In this document: positions 3,996 to 58,647 of the stretch, one piece after another | Layout: each line of letters opens with the position of its first letter | Numbering within the stretch: position 1 is the stretch's first letter | Origin: an uncultured Verrucomicrobiota bacterium | GTDB lineage: Bacteria > Verrucomicrobiota > Verrucomicrobiia > Limisphaerales > SXQI01 | DNA: 64,000 bases | Direction of reading: 5' to 3' | Assembly (NCBI GenBank): GCA_964478815.1 | Contig: CAYZKY010000002.1 | Span: forward strand, 1,980-65,979 | The notes under the pieces: model-generated | Databases searched by the model: none | Told to the model about the DNA's origin: nothing | The model's input: only the letters and a program-made list of their open reading frames with translations | Program-made: the position numbers and the translations under genes

Positions 3996-4090
3996 TCTAT
4001 CCGCAAGTAATACCCGCCCGCGGCCATAGGGGACAAAAATTCGCCGCACCGGAGCGGCCAGGGCCGGTTCGAATGAAATGCCCGAACGGT

Positions 4091-20237: not shown

Positions 20238-20460
20238 GCCTCTGAGTCTGCTCCAAGCCCGACCCGCAGAGCAATGGGGAGTTGCAGAAGCACCCATGTA
20301 TCAAGCGCTGGCCAGCCACCGTGAAGCACGCAGTATGACTTCGATCCCCACAGACAATGCCCCGCTAACTGGAAGGATTCGACCATCGCCGCCGCATTTT
20401 TCAAAAAAATGGACTGACCTTCGCTCAGATCAAAGCGGTGAGGGTTTTACCGCCCCGACT

Positions 20461-21438
20461 TCATTCGAAACGAAACCGGCTCGCCGCCAGGTACTCAGCC
20501 AGGTTCTCGCTCGCCAGCCAATGACGCTGCAGTCGCTCGGCGACAGCTCCCGTGGTGTTGGAACCGGCAAACGGATCATAGACAAGGTCGGATTCGTCTG
20601 TCAGGAGTTTGATGAAAAACTCCGGCAGCGCCGCTGGAAATCGCGCTGGATGAATCTTCATTCCGGCTTCCTTGCACCGTTTTGTATAGAGGTCGTTCGC
20701 AGCGTTGTTGCCGAACTTCAACATCGTTTCTCCATCGGCGTCTTCCACGACATTCGGCGGGATTGATCCTCCCGGTTCGATTTCGGTAAATCCAAGCCGG
20801 ATATTGTGTCCGGATGGGCGCACCGTTTCCCGGACTCCGCGTTTGTTCAAGCGCAACATGTCGGCGCTGTATGGGCGAAGCACACGGCGATTATTCGCTT
20901 TGGGCGAGGGTGTTTTTGAAAACCACCAGACATATTCGACCGCGTCTTTGACGCGGATACGCCGCACCGTGACCCATTCCGCAGGCATCGGCATTTTTGC
21001 CGGATTATACCAAAAGCATTCCTGCGCCAGGTGGAAGCCGATCTCTTCCACCAAAGCAATCATCAGCTTAAAGTGGTAAATCGACCGCGTTGGGGCTCCT
21101 GCGTTGTAGCTTCCGCCGATATTTAGGACGAAGCTCCCGTCCGGCTTGAGCACTCTAAAAAAATCCCGGGCAAATTCGAGGAACCATTGGACATACTCGG
21201 CTTTCGCCACATTCCCATACTCTTTTTTGAAGTGCAGCGCATATGGAGGCGAAGTAAAAATGAGATTCACCGAATTGTCCGGCAATTGCGCCAAAACTTT
21301 CTTCGAGTCGCTCAAGTAGGCCGCGCCTTGCTCCGTTCGATAGGACGGCTCCCAGCCCGGCAGCAACGACGTCGGATGCTTGCCGTTCCCGAATACGAAG
21401 CTCGCTTGCGCTCTGGATATTTTCACCTCTTTTTTCAT
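20461..21438 (-). CDS. Beta-class amino DNA methyltransferase (N4-cytosine/N6-adenine family; the SPPY motif favours m4C)
   Basis: Motif IV (IFTSPPY) precedes motif I ([15 protein letters not shown]), which is the beta-class order. The size of 325 aa is typical of type II methyltransferases. Confidence 0.85.
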
Positions 21439-21566
21439 GATCCTAGCATTCGACGAAATGGGTTTCCATCCAGAAACCGCCTTACTATCATGCGCTGCCC
21501 GAAGCCATCTGCCTCGATTTTGGGCAGACTGGCTTCCACGATGAAGTTTGCTGAAATAGGTTTACA

Positions 21567-21800
21567 TTGTCAACTAAATTCGAAACCACAATTTTGCCTG
21601 AAGATTGGATATCCTCAGCCGAGGCGGCTCGGCTCAGGGGCATCTCGCGCCAAGCGGTTGCCAAGCTCATTCGCACGGGCCGTATTTCCACGCTGAAAAT
21701 CGCCGGGCGGCATCTCGTAAAACGCTCGGATATCCTAAATTTCCAACCTCGCAAGCCCGGCCGCCGCCGGCAGCATTTGCCGAATGAGCAGGATCGATGA
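21567..21800 (+). CDS. Small helix-turn-helix DNA-binding protein (excisionase/MerR-like HTH); possible controller of the adjacent nuclease-like gene
   Basis: ISSAEAARLRGISRQAVAKLIRTGRISTLKIAGRHLVKRSDI is an HTH_17-like pattern. The only available start is TTG at 21567 (in-frame stop at 21552). Its 3' end overlaps the next ORF by 17 nt. Confidence 0.5.
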   Translation: MSTKFETTILPEDWISSAEAARLRGISRQAVAKLIRTGRISTLKIAGRHLVKRSDILNFQPRKPGRRRQHLPNEQDR

Positions 21801-22491
21801 GGTCAAGACGCTGCTGGCTCGGTGCACGCTGGAGGAACGCCAGCAGGTTTTTCGATTTTTGCGGCAGGAGTTCAGAATCCATCCGATCGAAGACAAGCTT
21901 CATACGAAAGCGGAAGTTATTCTCGAAGCTTTCGGCCGAGCCAACGACCTGACCTTGCGGGGAATTCGGGGAATCATCGCCGAAGCGGCCTTCACCGTCG
22001 ATGTCGTCGGAACCTTGCCAGGATGGAAAGACGTCACGCCGCCCGGCGATCACGCGTTTGACTGCGCGCTCGAAGATCAGTTCGGTCGCGTTACCATTCA
22101 GGTGAAATTGCAGCGTCTGAAAGACCATAAACCCATGAGCGCCAAGCAAGGATACCGTTTCCTGCCGGCCGATCAGTTTGTTGTGGAGACCCAACGCACC
22201 CGAGGCGGGCTCGACACTCGAGGCGGCAAGACTCGGCCTTATCGATTTGGAGAATTCGAAATTCTGGCGGTTTCCCTCCATCCTTCGACAAATGACTGGG
22301 CAAATTTCATGTACACTGTGGCTGACTGGCTCCTTCCGGACCCGAACTACCCGCAGTGCCTCCTGAAATTTCAGCCCGTTTCGCCAACCGAGAATGCCGA
22401 CTGGACTCCTGATTTTCGAACAGCCGTTTCGTGGTTGCGAAGCGGCCGCAAAAAGCAAATTTGCGCGGATTTCGTTAACTCTGCTAAGTAA
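21784..22491 (+). CDS. Uncharacterised 235-aa protein; candidate restriction endonuclease partner of the methyltransferase
   Basis: The call rests mainly on position: it is divergent from the methyltransferase, overlaps the HTH gene and lies in the same low-GC islet. There is one weak nuclease-like pattern: E in IIAEAAF, then D in AFDCALED, then IQVK (D-x12-Q-x-K). I recognised no family. Confidence 0.4.
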   Translation: MSRIDEVKTLLARCTLEERQQVFRFLRQEFRIHPIEDKLHTKAEVILEAFGRANDLTLRGIRGIIAEAAFTVDVVGTLPGWKDVTPPGDHAFDCALEDQFGRVTIQVKLQRLKDHKPMSAKQGYRFLPADQFVVETQRTRGGLDTRGGKTRPYRFGEFEILAVSLHPSTNDWANFMYTVADWLLPDPNYPQCLLKFQPVSPTENADWTPDFRTAVSWLRSGRKKQICADFVNSAK

Positions 22492-22701
22492 ACTGGGGAA
22501 TTTCGATCGCGATCGCGATTCGCTGCCGGAAAGGCATCTCGCGATAGCGGGCGATCTCCATGGCGGTGGCTGGTTCAGGTGTGACCCGCGCAAGGCAACG
22601 AATGCGCCCGCGCCTTTCACCGAATTCCTTTGAGCCGTTTTGCCATTCGCGCGGGCCTCCATTCTCGGTTAGGTTGTGACTTCGTTCGGGAGTGAAAATT
22701 C

Positions 22702-25710: not shown

Positions 25711-26063
25711 GGCAAAGGTCTCGCCCTTCCCCGCCTTGCGGTTGGCCGGAGTTTTCCGGCAGGCTCTGAGGGTTGAAGCCCTCTCAAACCCACGCCGTCT
25801 TAAAAAACTGTAATATTGTTTTACACAAAATCGAACTGCCGAACGCTTACCCTCCTTTGGCCTTGTGTTGGATTCTATTCTAAATACATCATCATGAATG
25901 ACTTATGAGCAGCCGCTCGTTTCCGGAGCTTTTGCGGCCTCATTCTTGCTTTTATCGTCCGACGACCACCCGGGCCAGCAGCCGTCATCGGCTGCCGATT
26001 CGAGCCGCTGACCCGGTTGAAAATCGAAACACGAACTGAGTTCAACCGACATTGCCCACGCTT

Positions 26064-29218: not shown

Positions 29219-30408
29219 GGCGGCGGGATGGGCAACCCCCGTTGCCGAAGCAGCCTTTCGTAGACCCGCCGTATGTCCTCCACCATGCGCTGGACGGGAA
29301 AGCGCGCCGAGACGAAAGCCCGGCCACGTTCCCCGCACTGGCGGCGGAAGCCCTCTTCCGAGGCCAGCCGCACGATGGCGGCTTCGAGTTGCGCCAGGTC
29401 GCCCGGCGGCACAAGCACGCCGGTCTCGCCCGTCCGGCACACCTCCCCCGCGCCGTCGCAATCGAAGGCCACGACCGGCTTGCCGGCGGCTAGGGCTTGC
29501 GGCAAGGCGCGGGGCAGGCCCTCGCGGCGGGAGAGATGGACGAGGAGATCCATGATGCCGACCAGCGCCGGAATCTCCGTGGGAGGAACGAGGCCGGTGA
29601 AGACGAAGCGATCCGCGAGCCCCAGGCCGGCGGCCATCTCCTTGAAGCGCGTCTCCCACGGACCGCCGCCGACCAGCAGGAACTTGATCTTCGGACAGGC
29701 TTGCACCAGGCGGGGCGCCACGGCAAAGAGATCGTCGTGGCCCTTGAGTTCGAACAGGCGCGCGATCTTGCCGATGACGAGGTCGCCGGGCGCGAGGCCA
29801 TAGTGGCGGCGGAGTTCCGGATCGTTCTTCGCTTCGAGAAACCGCCCGAGGTCGAACCCGCTAAACACCCGCGTGTAGTCGGCGGGCTGGCCGATGCCCG
29901 CCTCGAGGTACTGGCGAGTCATCGCTTCGGCCACGACGATGAAATGGTCGGTGGCCCTTCCTGCGATCCGCTCCGCCGCGCGGAAAATAAAATTCGAAAG
30001 GACCCCTTGCCAGGGGCCGAACGAAGGCCCGTGGATGGTATGCACAACCAGCGGCACCCCGGCATGACGTGCCGCCAGGCGCCCGACGATCCCGGCTTTG
30101 CCGCTGTGCGTATGGACGATGACGGGGTTGGTCTGGGCGAATCGCTTTCTCAGCGCCCGGTAGGCTTGCCAGTCCTGCCACGGCCGGACCGGCCGGACCA
30201 GATCCGGCTCGATCGCCAAGACGCCGGGCCATTTTTGAAAGAGCGGTTCGAGAGTGCCTTCCGGACCGGTCGTGGGGCCGCTGACCAGATCGACTTCCCA
30301 ACCGGGCCAGCCTTGAAAACCGATAACCGACGCGATGGTATTTTCCTGGGCTCCGCCGACGATGAGACGCGTGATGATGTGGGTGACGCGCATCGCCCCG
30401 CCCGTCAC
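29215..30408 (-). CDS. GT-B glycosyltransferase (CAZy GT4-like, glycosyl transferase group 1)
   Basis: RVTHIITRLIVGGAQ is the N-terminal Gly-rich loop. HTHSGKAGIVGR is also present, and the C-terminal segment EGLPRALPQALAAGKPVVAFDCDGAGEV is an E-x7-E type region. The start is either the GTG at 30408 (GTGA overlap with the upstream stop) or the ATG at 30393. Confidence 0.8.
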   Translation of the reverse strand: MTGGAMRVTHIITRLIVGGAQENTIASVIGFQGWPGWEVDLVSGPTTGPEGTLEPLFQKWPGVLAIEPDLVRPVRPWQDWQAYRALRKRFAQTNPVIVHTHSGKAGIVGRLAARHAGVPLVVHTIHGPSFGPWQGVLSNFIFRAAERIAGRATDHFIVVAEAMTRQYLEAGIGQPADYTRVFSGFDLGRFLEAKNDPELRRHYGLAPGDLVIGKIARLFELKGHDDLFAVAPRLVQACPKIKFLLVGGGPWETRFKEMAAGLGLADRFVFTGLVPPTEIPALVGIMDLLVHLSRREGLPRALPQALAAGKPVVAFDCDGAGEVCRTGETGVLVPPGDLAQLEAAIVRLASEEGFRRQCGERGRAFVSARFPVQRMVEDIRRVYERLLRQRGLPIPPP

Positions 30409-33400
30409 TTCAGCTTGGCCTGCATCTCCTCCAGGCGCGCCTGCACCTGCTTCTTTTCCTGTTCGAGCTCGGGAGTGGCCTGGGCGGGCACGTAAGTGAG
30501 ATATTTGCGATAATACCCGACGGCCGCTTCCGCATCCTTTTCCTGGTAGGCGATGTCGCCCAGCCCGTAATAGATGGCGTAGGCCATGGGCATGATCTCT
30601 TGGAGGCGGAGGTAGTCTTCGCGCGCTTCCTTCAGCCGCCCTGCTCGCAAAAAGAGCAACGCTCGATTGCGCAGCGCCGCCAGTTGATCGTCGTCGGCCT
30701 TGAGGACGCGGTCGAAATCGATTTCGGCGCGTTCGTAGTCCTTGAGTTCCATCCGCATGATGCCCCGGTAGGTCAGGGCCTGGGCGTTATCCAGATCGTA
30801 CTGGAGGATGCGGTCGGCGATGGCCACGCCGGCGTCATACTGCTTTTGCTGGAGCGCGATGAACGCTTTGTAAAGGAGCGCGGCCGTCTCGCGCGGCGAG
30901 GCGGTGAGCAGCAGATCCAGCGTTTCGGAGGCCTTGGGCAGGTTGTCCATCGCCATCAACGTCTCGGCCTTCTGCAGGAGCGCGAGGCGGTTGGTGGGAT
31001 TGCGCGACAACTGAGCCTCGATCAGATCGAGAACATTCGTCCAGCGGGCCGACGCCCGGTACAGCTCATAGAGCGATTGATTGACCGAGGGCACCTCAGG
31101 AAACGCGGCTCTGGCCGCGAGCAACGTCTTCTCCGCGTTTCCGAAATCGTCCTTGGCGTAATGCGCGGCGGCCTCGAGGTTGATGAGATCGAGCTGGTTC
31201 GTGACCGGAAGGTGGCCCAGCTCGGCTCGAATTTTGCGAATTTCCTCAAATCCGCGGTCGACCCAGTTGCCGTAAACATAGCCTTTGGCGATCCCGAGCC
31301 GGGCCACGAAATTGGTCGGCTCGAACCGGGTCACCTGCGTGAATTGCTGAATCGCCTGACGGAAGAGGGACTGGGTAATGAAAAGATTGCCCAGCCATTC
31401 GCAGAATTGGGGCTGGTCGAACGGGCCGTGCGCGGAGAGCAGCGAATCGATCGAGCCAAGCTGGCCGAACTGATCTTCCAGTTCCTTCGGGCCGATCTGC
31501 TGGCGCGGCCGGCCCGCCTGAAGATCGGCGTTGAACTTCCCGTTCAGATAGGCGGGCGCGTTGTTGGTGTTGAATTCGAACGCCCGCTGGAATAACTCCG
31601 CGGCCCCCTTCAGATTGCCCTGCTGCTGGACCTGCACGCCCCAGGTGTTGAAGGCGCGCGCGAAGTAATTGGCCACGTAGGTCCCGTCGATCACGCCGCG
31701 CCGGCCCGCCGCCCGGGCTTGATGGGCGTAATCGGGTGCGGCCGCCCATTTGGCCGTGTTGGCTTGAATCTGCTCCGGCGTCAGCGGCGGCGGGAGCACC
31801 TGATTCGTCGCATACAGATTGAGCGAGTAGATGTTCCCCTGCGGCACGGCATACATTTTTTCGAAGAAGTAGCCGAAGCTCGGCTGCAGGTAATACACGG
31901 AGTTGGAGGCGGCGAGGTTTGCCACCATCTGTTGCAGGATGACCTGCTCGACGCGCGTATTGCCTTGATCCTCGCTGATGACCACCGGCCAGCGCGTGCC
32001 GTAGTGCTGCGAGAGTTGCTGGTGGTAGCCGGGCAATTCCAGGGAACGGGTATTGACGAGCACGTACTCGTGCTTTTGCCCGGCGGTGCGGTGATACCCT
32101 TCGAGCAGGAGAATCTGCACGGGATCTTCGCTCAGAAGGTAGGCCGAGCGGGCCGGCAATTCCTTCGCGATATCCGCCGCCAGCGATTTGAGCAGATGGC
32201 CGTTCTGCGCGCGGATGGTTCCAAAATTCTGATAAGCCAGAGCCGCCGGCACGGCGGCCAAGGCCAGCAAGACGACGCCGCGCACGAGCGGATTGACCAG
32301 CCGCATCACATCGGCCTGGCGGCGGTAAGATTTTTTGGGTGGATCGGTGAAGGTGAGCAGCGCGTACCCGCTGTAGTAGCCGATGGCCAGCGCCCCCAGG
32401 TAGTAGAAGCTCAAGAACGGCAGGCCAAAGCCCAGCGCCCGCGGGCTGAACTTGGGATCGAAAACGACGAACAAACAGGCCGCGAGGAAGAAGAGATGCA
32501 CCACCCGGAACATGATGATGGTGATGTTCGCGCCGGCGGCGCTGGTATCGCCGAAGCTCGAAGGCCACCGTATCCCGATCAGCAGGATCGGCAGCAACGA
32601 GGTGATCGAGAGAATCGCCGCGCGATTGCGCAGGGGCGGAGTATCGAGCAGGAATTGCTTTTGCGCCGCCAGGTTGGCCCGGAGCACTTCGATAATCCCA
32701 AACTCCGCCTGGCCGGAAAGCACCCACCAGATCGGCAGGAAAAGGTAAAGCAGCAAACCCGCCACGCCCGCGCCGAGCATTCGGCCGATAAAGCCGAGGT
32801 GGAAAAACGCGCGCCCCCGCACCCAGACCAGGGCGATCAGCATCGCGGGGAAAAACCCGATGAAGCACCAGTCGTTGGTGACGGCGAGGCCGTAGACGAA
32901 CGCCATCCGCGTGAGCCAGGATTCGCGCTGCGAGACGCGGAATTCGAGCAGACAGCGAATCACGTAGGCAAAGAGCAGAATGTTAAGGCTCTCGCCCGTC
33001 AGCGCCGTGGCATGTTCCCAAAAAGTTAATTGAAGCCCGCAAACAAGCACCGCCAGGGCGGGAGGCACCCAGGCCAGCGGGATGGACAGGAGCGAGAATT
33101 CGCTCCGTTCGCGGATGCGCTGTTCATGAGTGCGGTCGTGCGGCAGGAGCATGACCGACCGCGCGAGCAATCCGAGAGCCACGGCTCCGCAAGCCGCGCT
33201 GAAAAGATTGAAGGCGATCGGCTGCAGGCCGGATGGGAGCAGCCGCAGCGGAGCCGTCACCAGGAAGAACAGCGGCCATTGCACCGGCAAGGCCCAGTCC
33301 CAGCCCGCCACCTTCGACACGACCAGCAGGCTGCGCAGGTTCACCCACTGGTTCAGCGAAATGGCGAATAGCGCCAGCATTACCCCGGCCAGAACCCAAG

Positions 33401-33446
33401 GCAGTTTCGAACGGACAAAACCCCGTGGGGTTCCTGCAGTCTCCAT
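30405..33446 (-). CDS. DUF2723/TMEM260-like polytopic membrane protein (GT-C-like) with a long C-terminal TPR region
   Basis: The N-terminal 430 aa or so contain about 11 helices, with the pattern I associate with DUF2723 (LNILLFAYVIRCLLEF, FVYGLAVTNDW). The C-terminal 450 aa or so carry repeated TPR-like 34-mers (e.g. AIYYGLGDIAYQEKDAEAAVGYYRKYL). Confidence 0.7.
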   Translation of the reverse strand: METAGTPRGFVRSKLPWVLAGVMLALFAISLNQWVNLRSLLVVSKVAGWDWALPVQWPLFFLVTAPLRLLPSGLQPIAFNLFSAACGAVALGLLARSVMLLPHDRTHEQRIRERSEFSLLSIPLAWVPPALAVLVCGLQLTFWEHATALTGESLNILLFAYVIRCLLEFRVSQRESWLTRMAFVYGLAVTNDWCFIGFFPAMLIALVWVRGRAFFHLGFIGRMLGAGVAGLLLYLFLPIWWVLSGQAEFGIIEVLRANLAAQKQFLLDTPPLRNRAAILSITSLLPILLIGIRWPSSFGDTSAAGANITIIMFRVVHLFFLAACLFVVFDPKFSPRALGFGLPFLSFYYLGALAIGYYSGYALLTFTDPPKKSYRRQADVMRLVNPLVRGVVLLALAAVPAALAYQNFGTIRAQNGHLLKSLAADIAKELPARSAYLLSEDPVQILLLEGYHRTAGQKHEYVLVNTRSLELPGYHQQLSQHYGTRWPVVISEDQGNTRVEQVILQQMVANLAASNSVYYLQPSFGYFFEKMYAVPQGNIYSLNLYATNQVLPPPLTPEQIQANTAKWAAAPDYAHQARAAGRRGVIDGTYVANYFARAFNTWGVQVQQQGNLKGAAELFQRAFEFNTNNAPAYLNGKFNADLQAGRPRQQIGPKELEDQFGQLGSIDSLLSAHGPFDQPQFCEWLGNLFITQSLFRQAIQQFTQVTRFEPTNFVARLGIAKGYVYGNWVDRGFEEIRKIRAELGHLPVTNQLDLINLEAAAHYAKDDFGNAEKTLLAARAAFPEVPSVNQSLYELYRASARWTNVLDLIEAQLSRNPTNRLALLQKAETLMAMDNLPKASETLDLLLTASPRETAALLYKAFIALQQKQYDAGVAIADRILQYDLDNAQALTYRGIMRMELKDYERAEIDFDRVLKADDDQLAALRNRALLFLRAGRLKEAREDYLRLQEIMPMAYAIYYGLGDIAYQEKDAEAAVGYYRKYLTYVPAQATPELEQEKKQVQARLEEMQAKLK

Positions 33447-33936: not shown

Positions 33937-34023
33937 ATTTACACAGCACTTACACAGCACTTACACAGCGATTTACACAGTGCTTGCCCCCGATTTACAC
34001 AGCAAAATGTTGCATTTACACAG
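33937..34023 (+). repeat. Array of six direct A(T/C)TTACACAG repeats phased at 11-12 bp
   Basis: TTACACAG starts at 33939, 33950, 33961, 33973, 33995 and 34016, giving spacings of 11, 11, 12, 22 and 21 bp. The array lies in the 793-bp divergent intergenic region between the starts at 33446 (-) and 34240 (+). Confidence 0.85.
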
Positions 34024-34239: not shown

Positions 34240-34986
34240 ATGAAAACCCGATCCAGCGGCGGCCGCGTCATGGTTGGAAGACAGGCCGGCCGGGCCTTCC
34301 GTTCGAAAGCAGGGGGCTTTACGCTCATCGAATTGTTGGTGGTGATCGCGATCATCGCCATCCTGGCGGGGATGCTGGTGCCGGCGCTCGTGGGCGGGAA
34401 AGTGGCGGTGCGGAAGAGTTTGTGCCTGAGCAACCAGCGGCAAATCGCCCTGGCCACGCAAATGTATGCCGACGATTTCAACGGCAACTTTCCGAAAGCG
34501 ACCAACGAAGACCACACCATGTGGATTACGCGCATGCTCAAAACCCGCCATTTCTCGACGTTGAAGATTTTCGAGGATCCCGCCGAGAAGGAGGGCGGCA
34601 CGGATTTCACCAAGCTGCGCACCTTCCCGATCACTATCGACGGGCGGCGCACGAACTTCATCGGATCGTACGGCATCAATGAACGGCTGGCGGGCCCGAA
34701 CGGAATTCTGATGCCGACCTACCAGTCCGTAAAAGAGCCGGTCACGCTCTATTACTTCGGGTGCGCCACCTATTTCATCGTCCCGGACTGGGATCACGAA
34801 CGCGTTTACAATGCCGGCGGACCGCAGCCCATCGGCGCGACCGCCAACCCTCCCCGCCGCAAATATGCACGGCACGGCTCGGGGGCCGGATCGAAGCCAG
34901 GCAGCGTCATAGCCTACGTGGACGGCCACGCAAAATTCGAGGATCAAGTCTTCATCCAAAAGCGGTTGCGCTGGACTCAAGATTAA
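34240..34986 (+). CDS. Type II secretion/type IV pilin-like pseudopilin (prepilin N-terminal methylation motif, DUF1559-like body)
   Basis: The cleavage/methylation motif is GGFTLIELLVVIAIIAILAGMLVPAL. The C-terminal segment RHGSGAGSKPGSVIAYVDGHAKF resembles the H-Xn-DG motif of DUF1559 proteins. Confidence 0.8.
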   Translation: MKTRSSGGRVMVGRQAGRAFRSKAGGFTLIELLVVIAIIAILAGMLVPALVGGKVAVRKSLCLSNQRQIALATQMYADDFNGNFPKATNEDHTMWITRMLKTRHFSTLKIFEDPAEKEGGTDFTKLRTFPITIDGRRTNFIGSYGINERLAGPNGILMPTYQSVKEPVTLYYFGCATYFIVPDWDHERVYNAGGPQPIGATANPPRRKYARHGSGAGSKPGSVIAYVDGHAKFEDQVFIQKRLRWTQD

Positions 34987-43483: not shown

Positions 43484-43858
43484 ATGACAAAGCGTGACTT
43501 GGTGGTGAAGATCAGCGAGGAAACCGGCATGATTCAACACGATGTGTTGAACGTCGTGCAGCGGACGCTCGAGCACATTTCCGATGCCGTCACCACCGGC
43601 GAGAAGGTCGAGCTCCGCAACTTCGGCGTCTTCGAGGTCCGCATCCGCAAAGCCCGGGTGGGCCGCAACCCCAACGCTCCCTCCGCCGACGTCACCATCC
43701 CGCCCCGCGCCGTCGTCAAATTCAAACCGGGCAAGGACATGCGCCAGGCCGTCCTCAAGCTCACCGATCAGCAATTGGCCGCGGCAGCCGCCCGCGCGGC
43801 GGTCTATCCGGAAGAATCGTCCGAGTCCGAATCGGACCACGAGCCCGATAAACAATAG
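43484..43858 (+). CDS. HU/IHF-family DNA-binding protein with an acidic C-terminal tail
   Basis: MTKRDLVVKISEETGMIQHDVLNVVQRTLEHISDAVTTGEKVELRNFGVFEVRIRKARVGRNPNAP...VVKFKPGKDM shows the canonical HU/IHF fold signature. Confidence 0.85.
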   Translation: MTKRDLVVKISEETGMIQHDVLNVVQRTLEHISDAVTTGEKVELRNFGVFEVRIRKARVGRNPNAPSADVTIPPRAVVKFKPGKDMRQAVLKLTDQQLAAAAARAAVYPEESSESESDHEPDKQ

Positions 43859-45191: not shown

Positions 45192-46754
45192 ATGGAACCG
45201 ACCCGCGCCGCTCACTCGCACTCGGGCTCATCGAGCCGGTCCTCCGCTCGCGAGGACCGCACCCGCACCCCTGCGGCCTATCGCGTGCTGGACGAAGGCT
45301 CCGGCATCCTCGTGCTGGTCATGGCCGTTGCCGCCCCGTGGCTGTTCGGGACGACCGAGGCCTGGTCCGTCTGGGCCATGAATATCGCGTCCTACCTCTT
45401 GGGCGCGGCCTTGATCGCGAAGCATGTGCTCCGCCGCGTCCTCGATTTTTCCCCGCCGCGCGTCACGGTCGATACCGCCGCGCATCGCGTCCTGCGCTGG
45501 AGTTTCCTCGCCGCGAACATTCTGGTGCTGGCCTACTGCCTCACTGCGGCCCTGAATGCCCGCGCGACGTTCCTCCCCCAGGACCAAACCTTTGACTACC
45601 GCGAATCGATCGCCTGGCTTCCCTCCTCCTACGATGCCCGGCTCACCTGGTTCGCCTTTTGGCAATATCTCGGCCTTTTCTGCTTCTTCTGGAGCGTGCG
45701 CGACTGGCTGATCGGCCGGCCGAAATCCGCCCAACGCAAAAAGCGACGTTCCCAGGATGCGGAAGAACTCCTGGAAGAGAAACTCTCCTCGACGACGTTC
45801 GACCTGCCGAAGCGCCTCAAGCTGCTCCTGTGGGTGCTCTGCCTCAACGGCATGGCCCTGGCGCTTCAGGGCATCCTCCAGCGCCTCGATGGCAGCGGCA
45901 AGCTCCTCTGGATTCGCCCCTCCTGGTGGGGCACTCCGGAAAGTTGCTTCGGCCCCTACTCGTATCGCAGTAACGCCGCCTCCTACATCAATTTGATCTG
46001 GCCGGTGGCCTTCGGTTTCTGGTGGATTCTCCATCAGGCCCATCGCGCGTCCGCCGGGCTGCTCGCCAAGTTCGGCCAGGGCGCGCAGACCGTCCTGCTG
46101 CCCGCCACCGTCGTCATGGCCGCCGCGCCGTTCATCTCCGCCAGCCGCGGCGGCGCGATCATCGCGGTGTTTTGCTTCGTGCTCATCATGGGCACGCTGC
46201 TCTTTCACCGCGGGACCGGCCGCGCCACCCGCCTCAGCCTCGGCCTTCTTGCCGCCGTCATCGCCATCGCCGCCCTGCTGCTCGGCTGGGAACAGCTCGC
46301 GCCGCGCCTCCGCCATCTCGAAACCGATAAATGGAGCAATCGCGGCGAAATTTACGAAAACTCCGAGCGCATCGCCGCCGATTTTCTCGCCTTCGGCGCC
46401 GGACCGGGCGCGTTCCGCTCCGTTTACCATCTCTATCGCACCAATCCTCGGCAGGACTGGTTCGCCTTCGTCCACGACGATTGGCTGGAAACGCAGGTCA
46501 CCTTCGGGGCCGTCGGCACCGCGTTTGTCCTGCTGAACCTCGTCCTCCTGGCGGCTTACTGGATCGGGGCCGGTCGCACCTCCGCTCCACCCGTCCTCCC
46601 CGCCGCGCTCTGGATCGCGCTCGGCGGCTGCCTCCTGCACGCCCGTTTCGATTTCCCGTTCCAGATCTATTCCATCTTGATGCTCTTCGTCCTGCTCTGC
46701 GCCATCCTCTTCAGTTTCTCCCGCAAGCCCACTCCCGAGAGCCGCGCCGCCTGA
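45192..46754 (+). CDS. O-antigen ligase/polymerase-like (Wzy_C-type) polytopic membrane protein
   Basis: It has about 11 helices. A large loop with SASRGGAIIAVFCF and FVHDDWLETQVTFG resembles Wzy_C family proteins. Confidence 0.55.
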   Translation: MEPTRAAHSHSGSSSRSSAREDRTRTPAAYRVLDEGSGILVLVMAVAAPWLFGTTEAWSVWAMNIASYLLGAALIAKHVLRRVLDFSPPRVTVDTAAHRVLRWSFLAANILVLAYCLTAALNARATFLPQDQTFDYRESIAWLPSSYDARLTWFAFWQYLGLFCFFWSVRDWLIGRPKSAQRKKRRSQDAEELLEEKLSSTTFDLPKRLKLLLWVLCLNGMALALQGILQRLDGSGKLLWIRPSWWGTPESCFGPYSYRSNAASYINLIWPVAFGFWWILHQAHRASAGLLAKFGQGAQTVLLPATVVMAAAPFISASRGGAIIAVFCFVLIMGTLLFHRGTGRATRLSLGLLAAVIAIAALLLGWEQLAPRLRHLETDKWSNRGEIYENSERIAADFLAFGAGPGAFRSVYHLYRTNPRQDWFAFVHDDWLETQVTFGAVGTAFVLLNLVLLAAYWIGAGRTSAPPVLPAALWIALGGCLLHARFDFPFQIYSILMLFVLLCAILFSFSRKPTPESRAA

Positions 46755-46827
46755 TCCGGCATCCCAACGGCCACGGAGTTCGGAACCCTGGCCACGTCCC
46801 AGGCCAATGCGCTGTCCCGTCGTCGCC

Positions 46828-48393
46828 TCACGGCGGAATGTGCGACCGGTGAATCGGCGTGGAGAGGCTCATCGGCAAGACGCGCTCTCCCAGAGGGCGC
46901 GAGAAGGTCACGCCGGCGAACCAGTCGGCCACCGTCACGCGGGCGGGCAGTGTCAGGATCAGCCCCTCCGGCGTTCGTTCCAGGGGAGCCTTGCGCCAGA
47001 TTCGGTTCCACCAGCGCTCGTCGACATTCGTCGACACATAAGCCCACAGTTCTCCGCCCTGCGGCATCGCCACGGCTTCTAACCGGAGCGACCGCCTGGA
47101 TTGACTGACGCGTGTCAGCCTCGGCACGGGTGTCCACCCCCACGCTAAATTCTCTGTATGAAAGAGCAATTCGCCGCTGGCCCACGCCGCCCCTCCGCTA
47201 TCTTGAGGGCCCCCAGGCAGCGTGAAGTCATGATTCACGCCGGGTGCGATGCACAAGCACTTCTCGCTCAGGATGGCGTCCAGTGTCTGCTGCGCCGCGG
47301 ACTGGTAAAAATAAGTGTCGTTCGAAGCGGCATACAACAGAATGCTTGCTCGCACGCGTTTCAGCCGGGGTGCTGGATCGAAATGAGCCAGCCATCTCCG
47401 GCGTTCCTCCTCCGTCTTCCCGAGGAGATACTCTCGCCAGACGGTTTCCATGAAAAAAGCGGTCCCGAACAATGAAAAGGCGCTGCGCACTCGCTCGTCG
47501 AGCAACGCACACAGCATGATCGAGACATATCCACCCAAACTCGAACCGCTGACGGCGACCCGCTTCGGGTCCACGTCCGGATGCTCCGACACCAGGTTGA
47601 AGGCCCCCAGAGCGGCGAGGATCGCATCGAACAGCATCGAAGCCCGCGCGTTCGGGATCGCGTCCCACGCGCGGACGTCCAGCGTCCGGTGCCGCGAGAG
47701 GCTCTGTTGCGTTTCGGGATTGGACAGCCCCGGCAGCTCCACGGCGATCGCCACGAATCCCAGCTTTGCCCACCACAACGCCATGAAATCCTGCGCCACG
47801 CCGTTGCCGCCGTGGCAGATCAGGATGCCCGGATGCGCCCGGGGCAGCCGCACCACCGGCTCCGCCAGCACGGCATAGACCTCGTTCGGCTGGATGCCGC
47901 CTTCGGCGGTGCCTTCGAAATTTGCGAAGCGAAACTTCCGCAGGCGGACGCCGTCCGTCGTTTCGTCTGAAAAAACGGTCGTCCACGGCGGCACCCGGCG
48001 CAGGTACGGGTAGAACAAATCGTCTTCCGGAATCGGTTCGGGCGGGGGGAGGGCGGCAGCCGAGGCGGTGCGAAAGAATCCGGTGCCGTTCCCCGTCGGC
48101 AACCGCAGTCCTTCGCCTGGCTGCACAGGTCGGGAGCCCCAGGTTACATCGTGCCAAAACCGAAAGTCGCGCGATTCTTGCAGCCGCCAGGCCCCCGCCG
48201 AACCAGGCTCTCCCTGCACCTTGAAGTCGATAAACCCTGGATTCGGCGGGTAGTTGGGTTGAACCAGCACTTGAGCCCGTCCCCCCGCGGTCAACGCCTG
48301 GACCAGGAGCAAACCCATCCCGCAAGCAGCCGCTAATCTCGAGATGAAATCGCGCCGCGGTATATCAATGCCGACATCCGTGGATCGCCTCAC
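46828..48393 (-). CDS. Secreted alpha/beta hydrolase (S9 peptidase / esterase-like)
   Basis: A Tat-like leader reads RRDFISRLAAACGMGLLLVQALTA. A hydrolase core is present (ILICHGGNG), with the nucleophile elbow VSGSSLGGY. Confidence 0.6.
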   Translation of the reverse strand: MRRSTDVGIDIPRRDFISRLAAACGMGLLLVQALTAGGRAQVLVQPNYPPNPGFIDFKVQGEPGSAGAWRLQESRDFRFWHDVTWGSRPVQPGEGLRLPTGNGTGFFRTASAAALPPPEPIPEDDLFYPYLRRVPPWTTVFSDETTDGVRLRKFRFANFEGTAEGGIQPNEVYAVLAEPVVRLPRAHPGILICHGGNGVAQDFMALWWAKLGFVAIAVELPGLSNPETQQSLSRHRTLDVRAWDAIPNARASMLFDAILAALGAFNLVSEHPDVDPKRVAVSGSSLGGYVSIMLCALLDERVRSAFSLFGTAFFMETVWREYLLGKTEEERRRWLAHFDPAPRLKRVRASILLYAASNDTYFYQSAAQQTLDAILSEKCLCIAPGVNHDFTLPGGPQDSGGAAWASGELLFHTENLAWGWTPVPRLTRVSQSRRSLRLEAVAMPQGGELWAYVSTNVDERWWNRIWRKAPLERTPEGLILTLPARVTVADWFAGVTFSRPLGERVLPMSLSTPIHRSHIPP

Positions 48394-48494
48394 GCACCTC
48401 TCCTATCTCGAATGAACCGCCGAAGCAAGCCCCCGACACGGATCGGGCGCGACTGGGCGCATCTCGGTATGCCCCCCGAGCGGCGCCGGCTTTT

Positions 48495-48522
48495 GGTTTG
48501 GAGTTCCGCGTTTACGCGGTCC
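48495..48522. repeat. Small GC hairpin element, intergenic copy
   Basis: The sequence is GGTTTGGAGTTCCGCGTTTACGCGGTCC. The hairpin is CCGCG-TTTA-CGCGG at 48506-48519. Confidence 0.6.
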
Positions 48523-48763
48523 GGGGGCAGGAAAAAATCGCGCACGGCGGCACTCTTCAACCTTGATTCATCCCATCCCCTGTCGCATACTAACGGTATG
48601 ACGACTCAATATGAGGCGTCATTGCGAAACAGGGACGTTCTGACTCAAACCTCTCCGTTTCCCAATGACCCGCTAACCGTTCGGACCTTTCCCGTACTTG
48701 GCATTTCCATGTCCTCCTTGGGAGCACGCTTGCTCCCAAGCATTCCCGCCTCCTGCTTGGAGT

Positions 48764-48895
48764 ATTTACACGCCGAGGCGGGCGTATTGACAGGCATTTA
48801 CACAGCGATTTACACACCTTTACACGCCGATTTACACGCATTTACACACCCATTTACACAGATTTACACACTATTTACACACTCCGTTTTTCACG
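48764..48895 (+). repeat. Array of 9-10 direct (A/C)TTTACAC(A/G) repeats phased at 10-12 bp
   Basis: TTACAC starts at 48766, 48798, 48810, 48820, 48832, 48842, 48854, 48864 and 48875, with a degenerate TTCACG at about 48890. The spacings are 32, 12, 10, 12, 10, 12, 10 and 11 bp. The array lies in the 625-bp gap between two minus-strand genes. Confidence 0.85.
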
Positions 48896-49018
48896 CAACC
48901 GTTTCTGGTTCAATGATTTGCGTAAAAAAACCTGTCCCTGAACGTCCCCCCCTCCCCCTCCCCCCGATTGACACACTCAACCCCAGCACGGACTGCCAGA
49001 AACTCACCGGATCGGACG

Positions 49019-50404
49019 TTAGCGTTGGCCCGGCGTGCGCGGTGGAGCGTGGATATCAAAGCGTTGCAAGATGGCATTCGCGGCCTGTTGCGGAGCGAGC
49101 CCCTGCGCGGCCAGGGCGGCGGCCTGACCGCTGATGAACGCCGTGGCGGTGCTGGTGCCGGTCGAGACGTAGGTCTGCCCTTGATAGCGCACCAGGCTGT
49201 TGCCCGGAGCCTTGACCTCCACGAAGTCCCCTCGGTTCGCGTAGGGGGCGAGATTTCCGTTCCAATCGGCGGCCGTCACGGCAATGACATTCGGGCTGGC
49301 GGCCGGATAAACCGGATCGGTGGTCGGCGTGTTTCCAGCCGAAGCAAAGACCAGGATGTCCTTCTGCCGCGCCGATTGCAGGAGGTACTCCACCAGCGGG
49401 CTGTCGCCGGTTCCGCCCAGGCTCAGATTGATCACGCTCGGGTTGGCCTGGATGGCCCGGTACAAACCTTGCGCCACCTCGAAGGTGGTGGTGGTTGCCT
49501 TGCTGCCGTAGATGTCGACCGGCAGCACCCGGACTTTGCCGGCATCGTCCGCCGACGCGGTGCGGGCCAGACTGTTGAGGAGGGTTTGCGCCATCGAGGT
49601 GGCGTGCGTCGGCGCGTCTGTTCCGACCGCGGCCTCGCCCCCCGCGACCTGGATGGTCGGCAGCACGAAGTCCTTCATCTTGCCCTCCAGCGGCTGGATG
49701 GCCGTATCCACCAGAGCCACCGTCACCTGCTCCGAAGCGGAGACCGGTTTCGGATCAATGGGAAACAAACTCGAGAGCGGCGCGGAACTGGATGCCTGGT
49801 TGACCGGCCTCTGATACGCGTAATTGTCGCTCGTTTCGAGATCGGTGCGGGCTTCGAGCTGGGTGCGGGCTTTATCGGCCGCCGCGTCGGTCTCGAACTC
49901 CAGGCGGTAAGAACGCAGCTCGTCGGAGCGCCCCGTTATCTTTGCGCCGAGTTCCGCCGCCAGGGTTTCGATATCCGTCTTCGCATTCGGGCCGAGCGTG
50001 ACGATGATCTCGTTCCGCAGCCAGTTTGCGGGTTTCGGTTCGCCGGGGACGCGTTCGGTCGCACCGGAAATGGAGCTGCGATAGACGTAAAGCCTGGACA
50101 GCCCGCGCGATTGCGGCAGCAAGGCGTAGTTTACCCGATCCAGCAATTGCCGCAGCGCCTCCCCTTGCGACAGATTCTGAAACGAGGCGGACACCCGCTG
50201 GTCGAGCCCCGGCTCGACATAGATCTTCCAGCCGCTGGCGGTGGCGAGGCGATTCAGCAGTTGCCAAAGAGGCCAATCCGAAACGGCGGCATCGACCGTT
50301 TTGTCGCGCTTCCAGCGCAGGACTTGCTCGGCCCGCGCGACATCCGAGCCCAGAAAGACCCATCCTACCAACCATAAGGCAACCAGGCACCGCACGCGCT
50401 TCAT
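49019..50404 (-). CDS. Subtilisin-like S8 serine peptidase with an N-terminal STN-like domain
   Basis: The signal peptide reads MKRVRCLVALWLVGWVFLGSDVARA. An STN-like segment follows (LWQLLNRLATASGWKIYVEPGLDQRVSASFQNLSQGEALRQLLDRVNYAL). The catalytic triad contexts are VALVDTA (D), THATSMA (H) and GTSTATAF (S). Confidence 0.8.
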   Translation of the reverse strand: MKRVRCLVALWLVGWVFLGSDVARAEQVLRWKRDKTVDAAVSDWPLWQLLNRLATASGWKIYVEPGLDQRVSASFQNLSQGEALRQLLDRVNYALLPQSRGLSRLYVYRSSISGATERVPGEPKPANWLRNEIIVTLGPNAKTDIETLAAELGAKITGRSDELRSYRLEFETDAAADKARTQLEARTDLETSDNYAYQRPVNQASSSAPLSSLFPIDPKPVSASEQVTVALVDTAIQPLEGKMKDFVLPTIQVAGGEAAVGTDAPTHATSMAQTLLNSLARTASADDAGKVRVLPVDIYGSKATTTTFEVAQGLYRAIQANPSVINLSLGGTGDSPLVEYLLQSARQKDILVFASAGNTPTTDPVYPAASPNVIAVTAADWNGNLAPYANRGDFVEVKAPGNSLVRYQGQTYVSTGTSTATAFISGQAAALAAQGLAPQQAANAILQRFDIHAPPRTPGQR

Positions 50405-50540
50405 GCTTTTCGCAAACTAGTTCAGTGGTAACCCCGGCACCAGCGAAACGTTGCGTTCCGCGGCCCTGCGCGGCCGGCCAACTCCCACATTTCAAACCGA
50501 ACCTTGCCCGGCCGTCGGAATTCGGGTCAACTGACCGAAC

Positions 50541-51785
50541 ATGCAACACGGGAAGATCACGCGCGCGCAGTGGCTTGTCCTTGCGGCGGCTTTTCTGGGC
50601 TGGCTGTTCGATGGATTCGAGATGGGCCTGTTCCCGGTGGTGGCCCGTCCCGCGCTGTCGAATCTGCTGGCCGGGAGCGTCGAGGGCTCGCTCGACAGCG
50701 TGGTTGGACAATGGATCGGCTATATCAATGCCGCCTTTCTGCTGGGCGCCGCCGCTGGTGGTTTGATCTTCGGATGGCTCGGAGACCGGATCGGGCGCGT
50801 CAAAGCCATGTCGCTGAGCATCGCGGTTTACTCGGTCTTCACGGCGTTCGGTTACTTCGCTCAATCTCCCTTTCAACTGGGCGGCCTCCGCTTTATCGCG
50901 GCTTTGGGCATGGGAGGCGAATGGTCGCTGGGGGTGGCCCTGGTCATGGAATGCTGGCCGGAACGATGGCGGCCGCTGCTGGCAGGCTGCATCGGCGCGG
51001 CGGCGAATTGCGGCTTTCTGCTCGTGGGATGGGTCGCCCGCCTCTATCCCGTGACGCCCGATTCGTGGCGCTGGATGTTCGTCGTGGGCGCGGCCCCGGC
51101 CGTGCTGGTGCTGCTCATCCGCTTGTTCGTGCCGGAATCCGAGCGCTGGCAGGCGGCCAAAGTAGAAAATGCCAGCCCCCTCGCGGAGGTGTTCCGCGCG
51201 CCACTGCTTCGCCACACGTTGCTGGGCATCACCTTCGCCTCGGTGGCGCTGATCGGCACCTGGGGCTCGGTCCAGAATATCCCGAGCTGGGTGGATCAAT
51301 TGACGGAAGGTAAAATTCCCGGCGCGAAAGCCTCCGCGCAAATGTGCTCCGCCTGGGGGGCGATTGTCGGGAGCCTCGCCGGACCGCTGATTGGCGGACG
51401 CTGGGGGCGCCGCCCGGCGTATTTTGGGCTCTGCCTGGCCTCGCTCGCCGTCACGCAAATTCTCTTCCGCACGTTCGATAGCTACAGCACCAGCCTGCTG
51501 GCCATAATCTTTCTGACTGGCCTTTGCACCGCAGCCTTTTATGGATGGTTCCCGCTCTACTTTCCCGAGCTCTTTCCCACTCGCGCCCGGGCAACCGGCC
51601 AGGGGGTCAGCTACAATACCGGCCGGGTTTTCGCTGCGGCCGGGGCCATCCTTGGCGGTCAACTGGTCGCCTCGTTCGACGGCAGCTTCGCCCGCGCCGC
51701 CGCCGTGATTACCTTGGTTTATATCATCGGGCTCGCTGTCATCTGGATCGCTCCAGAAACGCGAGGCAAAGGGCTGCCGGCGTAG
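50541..51785 (+). CDS. MFS transporter (paralogue of the CDS at 17814-19118)
   Basis: It has 12 helices. The N-terminus AAAFLGWLFDGFEMGLF and the loop GWLGDRIGRVKAM parallel the other MFS protein in the window. Confidence 0.8.
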   Translation: MQHGKITRAQWLVLAAAFLGWLFDGFEMGLFPVVARPALSNLLAGSVEGSLDSVVGQWIGYINAAFLLGAAAGGLIFGWLGDRIGRVKAMSLSIAVYSVFTAFGYFAQSPFQLGGLRFIAALGMGGEWSLGVALVMECWPERWRPLLAGCIGAAANCGFLLVGWVARLYPVTPDSWRWMFVVGAAPAVLVLLIRLFVPESERWQAAKVENASPLAEVFRAPLLRHTLLGITFASVALIGTWGSVQNIPSWVDQLTEGKIPGAKASAQMCSAWGAIVGSLAGPLIGGRWGRRPAYFGLCLASLAVTQILFRTFDSYSTSLLAIIFLTGLCTAAFYGWFPLYFPELFPTRARATGQGVSYNTGRVFAAAGAILGGQLVASFDGSFARAAAVITLVYIIGLAVIWIAPETRGKGLPA

Positions 51786-51821
51786 CTGGTGCCAGGCCGA
51801 GCTGTTGCGAGCCTCCGTCTT

Positions 51822-52787
<966 letters not shown>

Positions 52788-54592: not shown

Positions 54593-54795
54593 CGCCGCAG
54601 GGTAGGGATTCCGCTCCCGAAAGGCCAGACGCGATGTAGCGGTCAAGCGGATCAATCACGAGGCGTGAGTGGTGGAGAGAAAAGAATTGGAAGTGGTGAA
54701 TTGTGGAGAATCGAGCGGGTTCAGCCTCTTTGACTATAGCGCAATATATTGATAGAAAATGAGTTATGATTATCGAAGGTGGGAAAAACAGGTGT

Positions 54796-58215: not shown

Positions 58216-58590
58216 CTACGCCGGCGGCCTCAGGACCGCATCGATAACATCGAGCAATTCCTCGCCGGAGAACGGTTTGGCCAGGGTGCGCGAGGCGCCG
58301 AGCATGCGCGCCGCCGACAGATAATCGCGGGCTCCCAGCCGGCCGCCGCCGGAGACGGCGATGATTTTCATGGCGGGGACCATTTTGCGGATGACGGCGA
58401 TGGTTTCGAGGCCCTCCCGTTCGGGCATGATGATGTCGGTAATGAGCAGATCGTAGGCCGCCTTGCCGGCCTCGCGGAGGGCTTCGTTGCCGTCCGCGGC
58501 GGTGCTGACCTGATGCCCGGCCCGCCCCAGGAATTCCGTTTGGGCAGCCAGGTAGTCCGCGTTGTCGTCTACCAACAGTATTTTGGCCAT
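58216..58590 (-). CDS. Single-domain response regulator (CheY-like receiver)
   Basis: The sequence reads MAKILLVDDNADYL...YDLLITDIIMPEREGLETI...KIIAVSGG...LAKPF. The start was set at the ATG at 58590. Confidence 0.85.
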   Translation of the reverse strand: MAKILLVDDNADYLAAQTEFLGRAGHQVSTAADGNEALREAGKAAYDLLITDIIMPEREGLETIAVIRKMVPAMKIIAVSGGGRLGARDYLSAARMLGASRTLAKPFSGEELLDVIDAVLRPPA

Positions 58591-58647
58591 ACCGAGCCGT
58601 GCGTCAGGGTGGGACACGCGGCCGACCGCTGCCTTGCTTCCAACCCT

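Follow-up and report, generated by a model that had tools for sequence, protein, structure and literature searches.

What kind of element is a run of ten short repeats, all in the same direction, in the DNA between two genes of an uncultured bacterium? The repeats lie in a stretch of 64,000 nucleotides (hereafter, the window; contig CAYZKY010000002.1 of NCBI GenBank assembly GCA_964478815.1, positions 1,980 to 65,979 of the forward strand) from a member of the Verrucomicrobiota (Verrucomicrobiia, Limisphaerales, SXQI01). We refer to them as array 2 and to a smaller array of the same word, 15 kb away, as array 1. On the basis of our analysis, we tentatively favor the reading that array 2 is an operator with multiple phased sites, at which a dedicated sequence-specific protein would bind roughly five 22-bp dimer sites arranged in tandem. 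A winged-helix regulator of the OmpR/PhoB type is the most plausible candidate, and we give this reading a probability of about 40%. The arrays have a sharp 9-bp core and a helical phasing, they are confined to two loci with unrelated flanks, and they gain and lose whole units between strains. Their parts are as follows.

48764 to 48883, plus strand: array 2, nine exact copies of (A/C)TTTACAC(A/G) and one ATTGACAGG variant, about 120 bp.
48887 to 48895, plus strand: degenerate eleventh copy TTTTTCACG, 14 bp past the last full copy.
48967 to 48975, plus strand: isolated variant copy ATTGACACA, 94 bp beyond array 2.
33937 to 34022, plus strand: array 1, six copies of A(T/C)TTACACAG in the same orientation as array 2.

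The units of array 2 start at 48764, 48786, 48796, 48808, 48818 (this one reads CTTTACACG), 48830, 48840, 48852, 48862, and 48873. With the degenerate copy included, the start-to-start spacings are 22, 10, 12, 10, 12, 10, 12, 10, 11, and 14 bp; from 48786 to the last full copy they run 10, 12, 10, 12, 10, 12, 10, 11, with a mean of 10.9 bp, and every copy is on the plus strand. In array 2 there are about five units of 22 bp, with a spacing of 10 bp between the two copies of a unit and of 12 bp from one unit to the next. It is this pairing of head-to-tail repeats at 10 to 11 bp into dimer sites by which operators of the OmpR/PhoB type are recognized. A preliminary description of this DNA, made from the letters and their open reading frames (ORFs), had counted nine copies of TTTACAC in one orientation, six of them exact ATTTACACA, and all of its sequence statements hold. 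The consensus TTGACA that it placed at 48787 to 48792 is present and belongs to the variant unit ATTGACAGG (48786 to 48794). The spacing supports the 22-bp dimeric periodicity on one helical face that it proposed, although the four repeats it counted become five once the TTGACA variant is included. The copies of array 1 start at 33937, 33948, 33959, 33971, 33993, and 34014, with spacings of 11, 11, 12, 22, and 21 bp. A register of 21 to 22 bp is thus held where copies are missing, and these gaps are consistent with selection on binding sites.

The word is far more frequent in the window than its base composition would predict, and this is due solely to the two arrays, as the claim of a clustered, overrepresented word had implied. 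ATTTACACA occurs 10 times (six at 48796 to 48881 and four at 33937 to 34022) where 0.06 occurrences are expected, and none of 100 shuffles reached 10. For TTTACAC, 15 occurrences compare with 1.36 expected, including nine at 48765 to 48880 and four at 33938 to 34021, all on the plus strand. When up to one mismatch is allowed, the window has 24 matches, of which 16 fall within or next to the arrays, and the other 8 compare with 6.7 expected overall. Alignment of the 16 copies from both arrays revealed information in exactly nine columns, ATTTACACR, amounting to 16.1 bits; the columns that flank this core hold 0.1 to 0.55 bits. The spacers of array 2 (GCC..., GC, GCG, C, GCCG, GC, CCC, G, CT) differ at nearly every unit, and the flanks of the two arrays are unrelated, with only the word common to both. 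A longer element shared by the two loci was therefore rejected. In a scan of the noncoding DNA of the window for clustered 7-mers, only both arrays and one TGGTGAA cluster at 54.8 kb were recovered; two further short repeats, at 15.4 and 22.5 kb, fall within predicted ORFs. Because the word is conserved, the spacers are free, and the helical register is kept, these data argue for selection on a binding site rather than for a recently copied satellite.

Is array 2 real? Contigs from four sequencing runs, independently assembled, are identical to the window over 46572 to 48869 and over 48842 to 52020, and because they match exactly, array 2 is not an assembly artifact. The short-read (Logan) contigs of the same organism from these four runs stop inside array 2, at 48842 and 48869. 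Array 2 is a breakpoint for short-read assembly of this genome, and it is useful to know when binning this organism that such arrays break short-read assemblies. A coding repeat is excluded because the period of 22 bp is not divisible by 3. The window contained no tRNA genes and gave no match at gathering scores in a scan with Rfam covariance models.

How would such an operator work? Members of the OmpR/PhoB family bind head to tail on direct repeats of 10 to 11 bp that form abutting 20- to 22-bp dimer sites, often with TTTACA- or GTAAA-like half-sites. The CpxR box is GTAAA-N5-GTAAA, Bacillus PhoP recognizes TT(A/T/C)ACA at 11 bp, and Streptomyces PhoP recognizes runs of 11-nt units. According to published accounts, OmpR has six tandem 10-bp sites at ompF (Harlocker et al. 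1995, cited in PMC3586657), KdpE recognizes a pair of AT-rich 6-bp direct repeats (PMC3264566), and ArcA uses three or more direct repeats at 11 bp (PMC4173790). In the model that we favor, the ten or eleven head-to-tail copies would each be a 9-bp recognition word, ATTTACACR, and about five adjacent 22-bp units would align all sites along the same face of the helix over about 120 bp. A dedicated protein would bind them cooperatively as tandem dimers, with a winged-helix response regulator of the OmpR/PhoB type as the most plausible class of binder, and the coated DNA would set the activity of a neighboring promoter. A candidate target for array 2 is the hydrolase gene to its left, which may be reached through a long structured leader, and the candidates for array 1 are the two divergent genes on its sides. 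The bordering genes are listed here.

46828 to 48393, minus strand: AXE1/DLH-type alpha/beta hydrolase gene, the nearest gene start facing array 2, 371 to 490 bp off.
49019 to 50404, minus strand: S8 subtilase (peptidase) gene, stop codon 136 bp to the right of array 2.
30405 to 33446, minus strand: TPR/TMEM260-like glycosyltransferase gene, bordering array 1.
34240 to 34986, plus strand: prepilin-type/DUF1559 (pseudopilin-like) gene, bordering array 1 and divergent from the glycosyltransferase gene.

Array 2 was correctly described as sitting between two minus-strand genes. Nothing supports the link to phosphate for which the preliminary description had suggested expression tests, however: the flanking genes encode a hydrolase of the esterase type and an S8 peptidase at array 2, and a TPR glycosyltransferase and a DUF1559 protein at array 1. 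As these are not related to phosphate, a Pho regulon was rejected.

Several observations weigh against the operator, and we hold its probability at the level given above because there is no recognizable promoter, no gene 3' of array 2, an atypical core with atypical spacers, and no comparative support for a regulon. Consensus scans, whose promoter rules do not cover this phylum, gave neither a sigma-70-type promoter nor an intrinsic terminator in either intergenic region. In the usual orientation of the OmpR/PhoB family, the promoter lies 3' of TTTACA; on that side of array 2 there is only the 3' end of a convergent gene, and the gene starts that face the arrays are 370 to 490 bp distant. The spacers are G+C rich and the 9-bp core is longer than typical half-sites of the family. 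Among the ORFs scanned in the 64 kb, none encodes a winged-helix effector (Trans_reg_C), and the only receiver domains are a stand-alone one (58216 to 58617) and one in a hybrid kinase. The comparison with relatives adds to this list. DUF1559 orthologues at 76% (L250), 68% (L252), and 67% (L251) identity have no adjacent array, and a relative whose HisRS is 84% identical lacks the hydrolase as well as the array downstream of a Wzy-like gene. Since these distant relatives are without arrays, the comparison gives no support for a regulon that is conserved, and the variation in copy number between strains suggests loose constraint.

What do the close relatives reveal about how the arrays change? 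In strain L123, whose hydrolase is 96% identical, array 2 is shorter by exactly 44 bp, that is, by four units or two 22-bp pairs. Strain L249, with a DUF1559 protein 98% identical, has five copies in array 1 instead of six and 11 bp less, and the remaining cores are intact. Conservation at orthologous loci was rejected, as the arrays are absent in L248, L250, L251, and L252. Because close relatives differ by whole units and distant ones lack the arrays, we conclude that the arrays are young and lineage specific and that they change by whole units; this polymorphism in unit number between strains is the one unusual trait of the array. The preliminary description had argued from the existence of two arrays for a dedicated DNA-binding factor acting at both, and this is still a reasonable inference: such a factor fits the bounded 9-bp core, the random spacers, the unrelated flanks, and the differences of 11 and 44 bp. 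Whole-unit gain and loss, if a regulator does bind the arrays, would be a simple example of operator strength tuned by repeat number.

The same differences could also come from a functionless minisatellite, an AT-rich unit slipping in replication, with the likeness of the two loci being a coincidence or the trace of an old duplication. Whole-unit changes in copy number among near-identical strains and the absence of the arrays from more distant relatives would both be expected of it. So would the finding that AT-rich 7-mer arrays at 10 to 12 bp are common: in pattern scans of genome, metagenome, and viral collections (the contexts described here and below are among the matches listed), the composition-matched control word CACATTT formed arrays at 78 viral loci, compared with at least 120 for TTTACAC. 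Yet the spacers differ nearly everywhere, while the 9-bp core is almost invariant over 16 copies at two loci, and this contrast counts against a minisatellite because slippage copies core and spacer together and decay hits both equally. The 21- to 22-bp register at the missing copies and the lack of enrichment of the word elsewhere in the window speak against it as well, and we consider a minisatellite unlikely. As the control word is nearly as frequent and the contexts of the matches are heterogeneous and unrelated, the breadth of the matches is not evidence for one factor, and a factor conserved across phyla was rejected. All that this breadth indicates is that short AT-rich words placed in register with the helix are a frequent solution. 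The matches listed include a VGVN-type repeat that is part of the coding sequence in genes of Kiritimatiellia and Verrucomicrobia, eukaryotic CA microsatellites, and an array before an AhpC gene in Cohnella (L008), and the genes that flank ten further arrays have no common theme.

Does the DNA around array 2 add to an operator or to another function? Three features lie between the array and the hydrolase gene.

48717 to 48740: perfect palindrome CTTGGGAGCA-CGCT-TGCTCCCAAG, 10 + 4 + 10 bp.
48394 to 48763, minus strand: noncoding stretch from array 2 to the hydrolase start codon, 370 bp.
48618 to 48669, minus strand: stem-loop of 22 bp inside this stretch.

The palindrome, to which attention had been drawn as a companion of the array, exists with its perfect 10-bp stem, but it has no evident special role: one arm carries an uncompensated T-to-G change in the 96%-identical relative L123, with a 21-bp insertion adjoining, the palindrome is not followed by a T-run, and nothing like it accompanies array 1. 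A T-run is missing after it on either strand and no terminator-like site occurs in 48300 to 49100, so that the palindrome is not an intrinsic terminator. A putative sigma-54 promoter overlapping it, and another with TGGCAC about 130 bp from array 1, were rejected, because each agrees with the consensus at 8 of 11 positions, which is chance level at this G+C. The 370-bp stretch is 95.9% identical in the relative, compared with 91 to 93% at third codon positions/synonymous sites, and it folds better than its shuffles, with z scores of -2.67 (minus strand) and -2.49 (plus strand). In the relative, one arm of the stem-loop has two substitutions that convert G.U and A.C to G-C and A-U and so improve the pairing. 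The only Rfam match at E<=1 was a spurious one, of a miRNA hairpin to the stem-loop (48617 to 48670). Because the stretch is slightly better conserved and folds better than shuffles, a long structured leader of the hydrolase gene is possible. A small ORF in it, of 21 codons after AAGGAGG, was rejected; it has three nonsynonymous changes and one synonymous change in the relative, with no sign of a conserved peptide.

A structured leader also raises the question of whether the array acts as RNA, for instance as a minus-strand (UGUGUAAAU)n transcript between the S8 peptidase and hydrolase genes that would serve as a sponge or as a platform for an RNA-binding protein. Repeat-rich sponge RNAs are known, CsrB and CrcZ with their many short repeats among them. 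Both genes that flank array 2 are on the minus strand with no terminator predicted between them, and the adjacent leader has excess structure. Nevertheless, a strict register of 10 to 12 bp (21 to 22 bp) is natural in duplex DNA and not in RNA, array 1 lies between divergent genes, Rfam gave no match, and the spacers are too short to hold the motifs in hairpin loops. An RNA-level element is highly improbable.

Could array 2 instead be a cluster of DnaA boxes, marking a chromosomal origin or a DnaA-titrating locus nearby, with array 1 as a second cluster 15 kb off? In the low-affinity DnaA sites of E. coli oriC, 9-mers in the same orientation stand about 11 bp apart, and the layout of array 2 resembles theirs; the conserved unit, at 9 bp, has the length of a DnaA box. 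The DnaA-box consensus is TT(A/T)TNCACA (quoted in 10.1101/866236 and PMC7561715), with which ATTTACACA agrees at 8 of 9 positions. Ten weak boxes pointing in one direction would build a DnaA filament toward the first of the two features below.

48884 to 48930: AT-rich segment directly 3' of array 2, 64% AT over 45 bp.
48940 to 48965, plus strand: C-rich tract CCCCCCCTCCCCCTCCCCCC, which helps to place the skew minimum at 49008.

The AT-rich segment is on the side expected from the orientation of the boxes, and together with array 2 it ranks second in AT content among the 100-bp stretches of the window. The cumulative GC skew has its global minimum in the window at 49008, dropping by about 1800 over 43 kb on the leftward side and climbing by about 330 over 15 kb to the right, and the array 2 region is the longest intergenic region near this turn. 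Between 49 and 52.5 kb, however, the minimum is flat, the local poly-C tract determines exactly where it falls, and a chromosome-wide skew switch is beyond what a 64-kb window can establish. Strand bias of genes is about 50% in Verrucomicrobia (PMC11040001), and for this reason we did not count the strands of the genes against an origin.

The details of the word and of the gene content fit less well. Every copy has at least one mismatch to the consensus. Position 1 is A or C (A in 14 of the 16 copies) and never the consensus T, and position 5, for which the consensus allows any base, is an invariant A. Neither intergenic region contains a canonical, strong, or zero-mismatch DnaA box, nor a run of three or more DnaA-trios ([T/A]A[G/A]) on either strand. 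A tblastn search of the window with an E. coli DnaA query gave no match to dnaA, and Pfam scans of nearly all ORFs of the window gave no dnaN, gidA, or parAB. In Methylacidiphilum, the one Verrucomicrobium with a mapped origin, the origin is 250 nt from dnaA (PMC2474590). Variation in copy number among strains 96 to 98% identical would also be unusual for an origin. Taken together, we regard a DnaA-box cluster as quite unlikely. Its most explicit form, in which array 2 is a chromosomal origin far from dnaA whose ten noncanonical boxes, variable in number among strains, feed the AT-rich segment at 48884 to 48930 while array 1 is a titrating cluster, is if anything a little less probable; it would, if true, define an unusual origin architecture in Verrucomicrobia. 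Elsewhere in the window, the most AT-rich 30 bp lie at 25800 to 25900, after uvrA. They include TTTTACACA at 25819, a single copy, which is the sole 9-mer near any intergenic region to fit the DnaA consensus without a mismatch. At array loci of other taxa, an apparent enrichment of DnaA boxes of about 2.7-fold (0.31 versus 0.12 per kb) was rejected, as only 17 loci contribute and the DNA is AT-rich and intergenic; dnaA is near none of the about 240 listed array loci.

The scans of other taxa turned up several layouts that are worth recording in their own right. In L203 (200 to 420), a phage-like contig, an inverted pair of perfect DnaA boxes TTATCCACAGGTTGTGGATAA is followed by three TTACAC at 11 bp, then by 130 bp, and then by three copies that point the other way. 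Because the whole layout precedes a small terminase gene, it is a candidate packaging or replication site. At L024 (1500 to 2640) and L056 (7570 to 7700), TTTACAC/GTGTAAA triplets directly follow tRNA genes, and in L024 they stand between the end of a tRNA and an integrase that has an arm-DNA-binding domain, so that they are likely recombinase arm-type sites. The Lentisphaeria metagenome-assembled genome (MAG) JAPXLT01 (L003, L012, L020, L035, L037, L085, L100, L102, and L116) has at least nine copies of a dispersed element with a conserved head of about 60 bp that includes a small hairpin, then (TTTACACGGAC)n with n = 3 to 7, and then GATCGG-rich repeats. Twelve metagenome contigs (L134, L139, L145, L154, L181, L192, L202, L216, L221, L230, L231, and L245), several of them soil derived and with 51 to 58% G+C, have in common a noncoding element of about 200 bp in unrelated flanks. 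It reads AATTACACG-CATTTACACG-CATTTACACG-CTTTTACACA at a strict 10-bp spacing, with a GCCGGGCCGGAGGCCGGC hairpin before it in most; in the L202 copy, 6S RNA is about 340 nt away. Finally, a Chitinophagales MAG (L002) carries a module twice in one 1-kb intergenic region (3460 to 3560 and 3830 to 3930), consisting of a GTAG-footed perfect hairpin GTAGAGACGC-N8-GCGTCTCTAC, 11 nt, and two or three CTTTACAC at 10 bp, which recalls the hairpin-plus-array layout of the window.

Might the arrays serve chromosome architecture or segregation, as a centromere for a ParR-type ribbon-helix-helix protein, iterons, arm-type or excisionase sites of a recombinase, or a platform for a BldC/Xis-like multimer? 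The parC site of plasmid R1 has about ten tandem repeats of about 11 bp, which are ParR sites, and a 22-bp periodicity is typical of iterons; array 2 is like the former in layout and like the latter in period. BldC sets a precedent for head-to-tail binding on variable numbers of direct repeats, as described in PMC5859096. The TTTACAC triplets beside the arm-binding-domain integrase (L024) and the small terminase gene (L203) point in the same direction. The window does not fit such a site. None of its scanned ORFs is an integrase, transposase, excisionase, terminase, partition, or replication-initiator gene, the window has no tRNA, and BLAST showed no similarity to plasmid or phage records. The region is chromosomal because the housekeeping genes hisS, gltX, uvrA, and accD are present. 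The two arrays are not the ends of a transposon, an idea that we rejected because both have the same orientation, a transposase is absent, and hisS lies between them. An architectural or segregation site is, in our view, very unlikely.

What else does the window hold? Pfam scans identified among its remaining genes uvrA, gltX, hisS, accD, glycosyltransferases, the hybrid kinase, and a restriction-modification island. The best named matches of its HisRS protein belong to Verrucomicrobiae and Limisphaerales, and the prepilin-type/DUF1559 gene at array 1 is likewise in keeping with the PVC group. An HU-family gene (Bac_DNA_binding/HU-HIG; 43484 to 43858, plus strand) lies immediately 5' of hisS, a pairing that is kept in L247 and L248. 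An unusual fusion, a protein of 555 amino acids (2382 to 4049, minus strand), joins extracytoplasmic function (ECF)-type sigma-70 regions 2 and 4 with two glyoxalase/bleomycin-resistance domains. The island of low G+C at 20400 to 22700 (0.56 versus 0.63) includes an N6/N4 DNA methylase gene (20461 to 21438, minus strand) and an unassigned ORF of 331 amino acids (21667 to 22662, minus strand), and it is probably a restriction-modification cassette. The TGGTGAA(T) direct repeats of the 54.8-kb cluster stand at about 54693, 54797, 54815, and 54835, with 20- to 21-bp spacing; they flank the most AT-rich 45 to 60 bp of the window (54729 to 54790), between an Rce1-like and a UbiA-family gene.

How does array 2 compare with systems that are known? 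Like the low-affinity arrays of E. coli oriC (R5M-tau2-I1-I2 and C3-C2-I3-C1) and like datA, it consists of 9-bp sites that all point one way at intervals of about 11 bp, and it shares with such DnaA clusters the match to TTWTNCACA at 8 of 9 positions, an AT-rich stretch at one end, and a local skew minimum. In contrast to them, it is without a strong anchoring box and DnaA-trios, has A and not T at position 1, has no origin-linked gene within 64 kb and a second array 15 kb away, and is polymorphic in copy number. With the parC site of plasmid R1, which has ten ParR sites of 11 bp, and the pSK41 centromere, built of tandem 20-bp repeats, it has in common about ten direct repeats and a period of 11 or of 20 to 22 bp. 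Those sites are bound cooperatively on one face, as we propose for array 2, but here the context is chromosomal and housekeeping, parM, parR, and other partition genes are lacking, and there are two separate arrays. The operators of BldC, a small MerR/Xis-like protein of Streptomyces, are also direct repeats whose number depends on the target and on which BldC multimers assemble cooperatively, head to tail; the word is different, no protein of this kind was identified here, and BldC sites are at promoters of known developmental genes.

The closest parallel that we see is with the tandem operators of the OmpR/PhoB family, such as OmpR F1-F2-F3 at ompF and the 11-nt runs for PhoP at Streptomyces and Bacillus Pho promoters. 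Array 2 differs from them in its 9-bp core, its G+C-rich spacers, and its strain-variable copy number, in having no regulator gene or recognizable promoter nearby, and in the 370 to 490 bp to the facing gene start, and its ten or eleven copies reach or exceed the upper limit of what has been described. Should a regulator indeed coat the arrays, they would provide a high-information word, ATTTACACR, with two natural targets in a phylum for which almost no regulatory sites are known. Array 2 is like those operators in its same-orientation repeats at 10 to 11 bp, in its abutting 20- to 22-bp dimer sites, and in its TTTACA/GTAAA-like half-sites, and its layout can be likened to the cooperative coating of 60 to 100 bp on one face that they display. 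It would then add one more example, from a phylum that has been little studied, to a kind of element that is already known.

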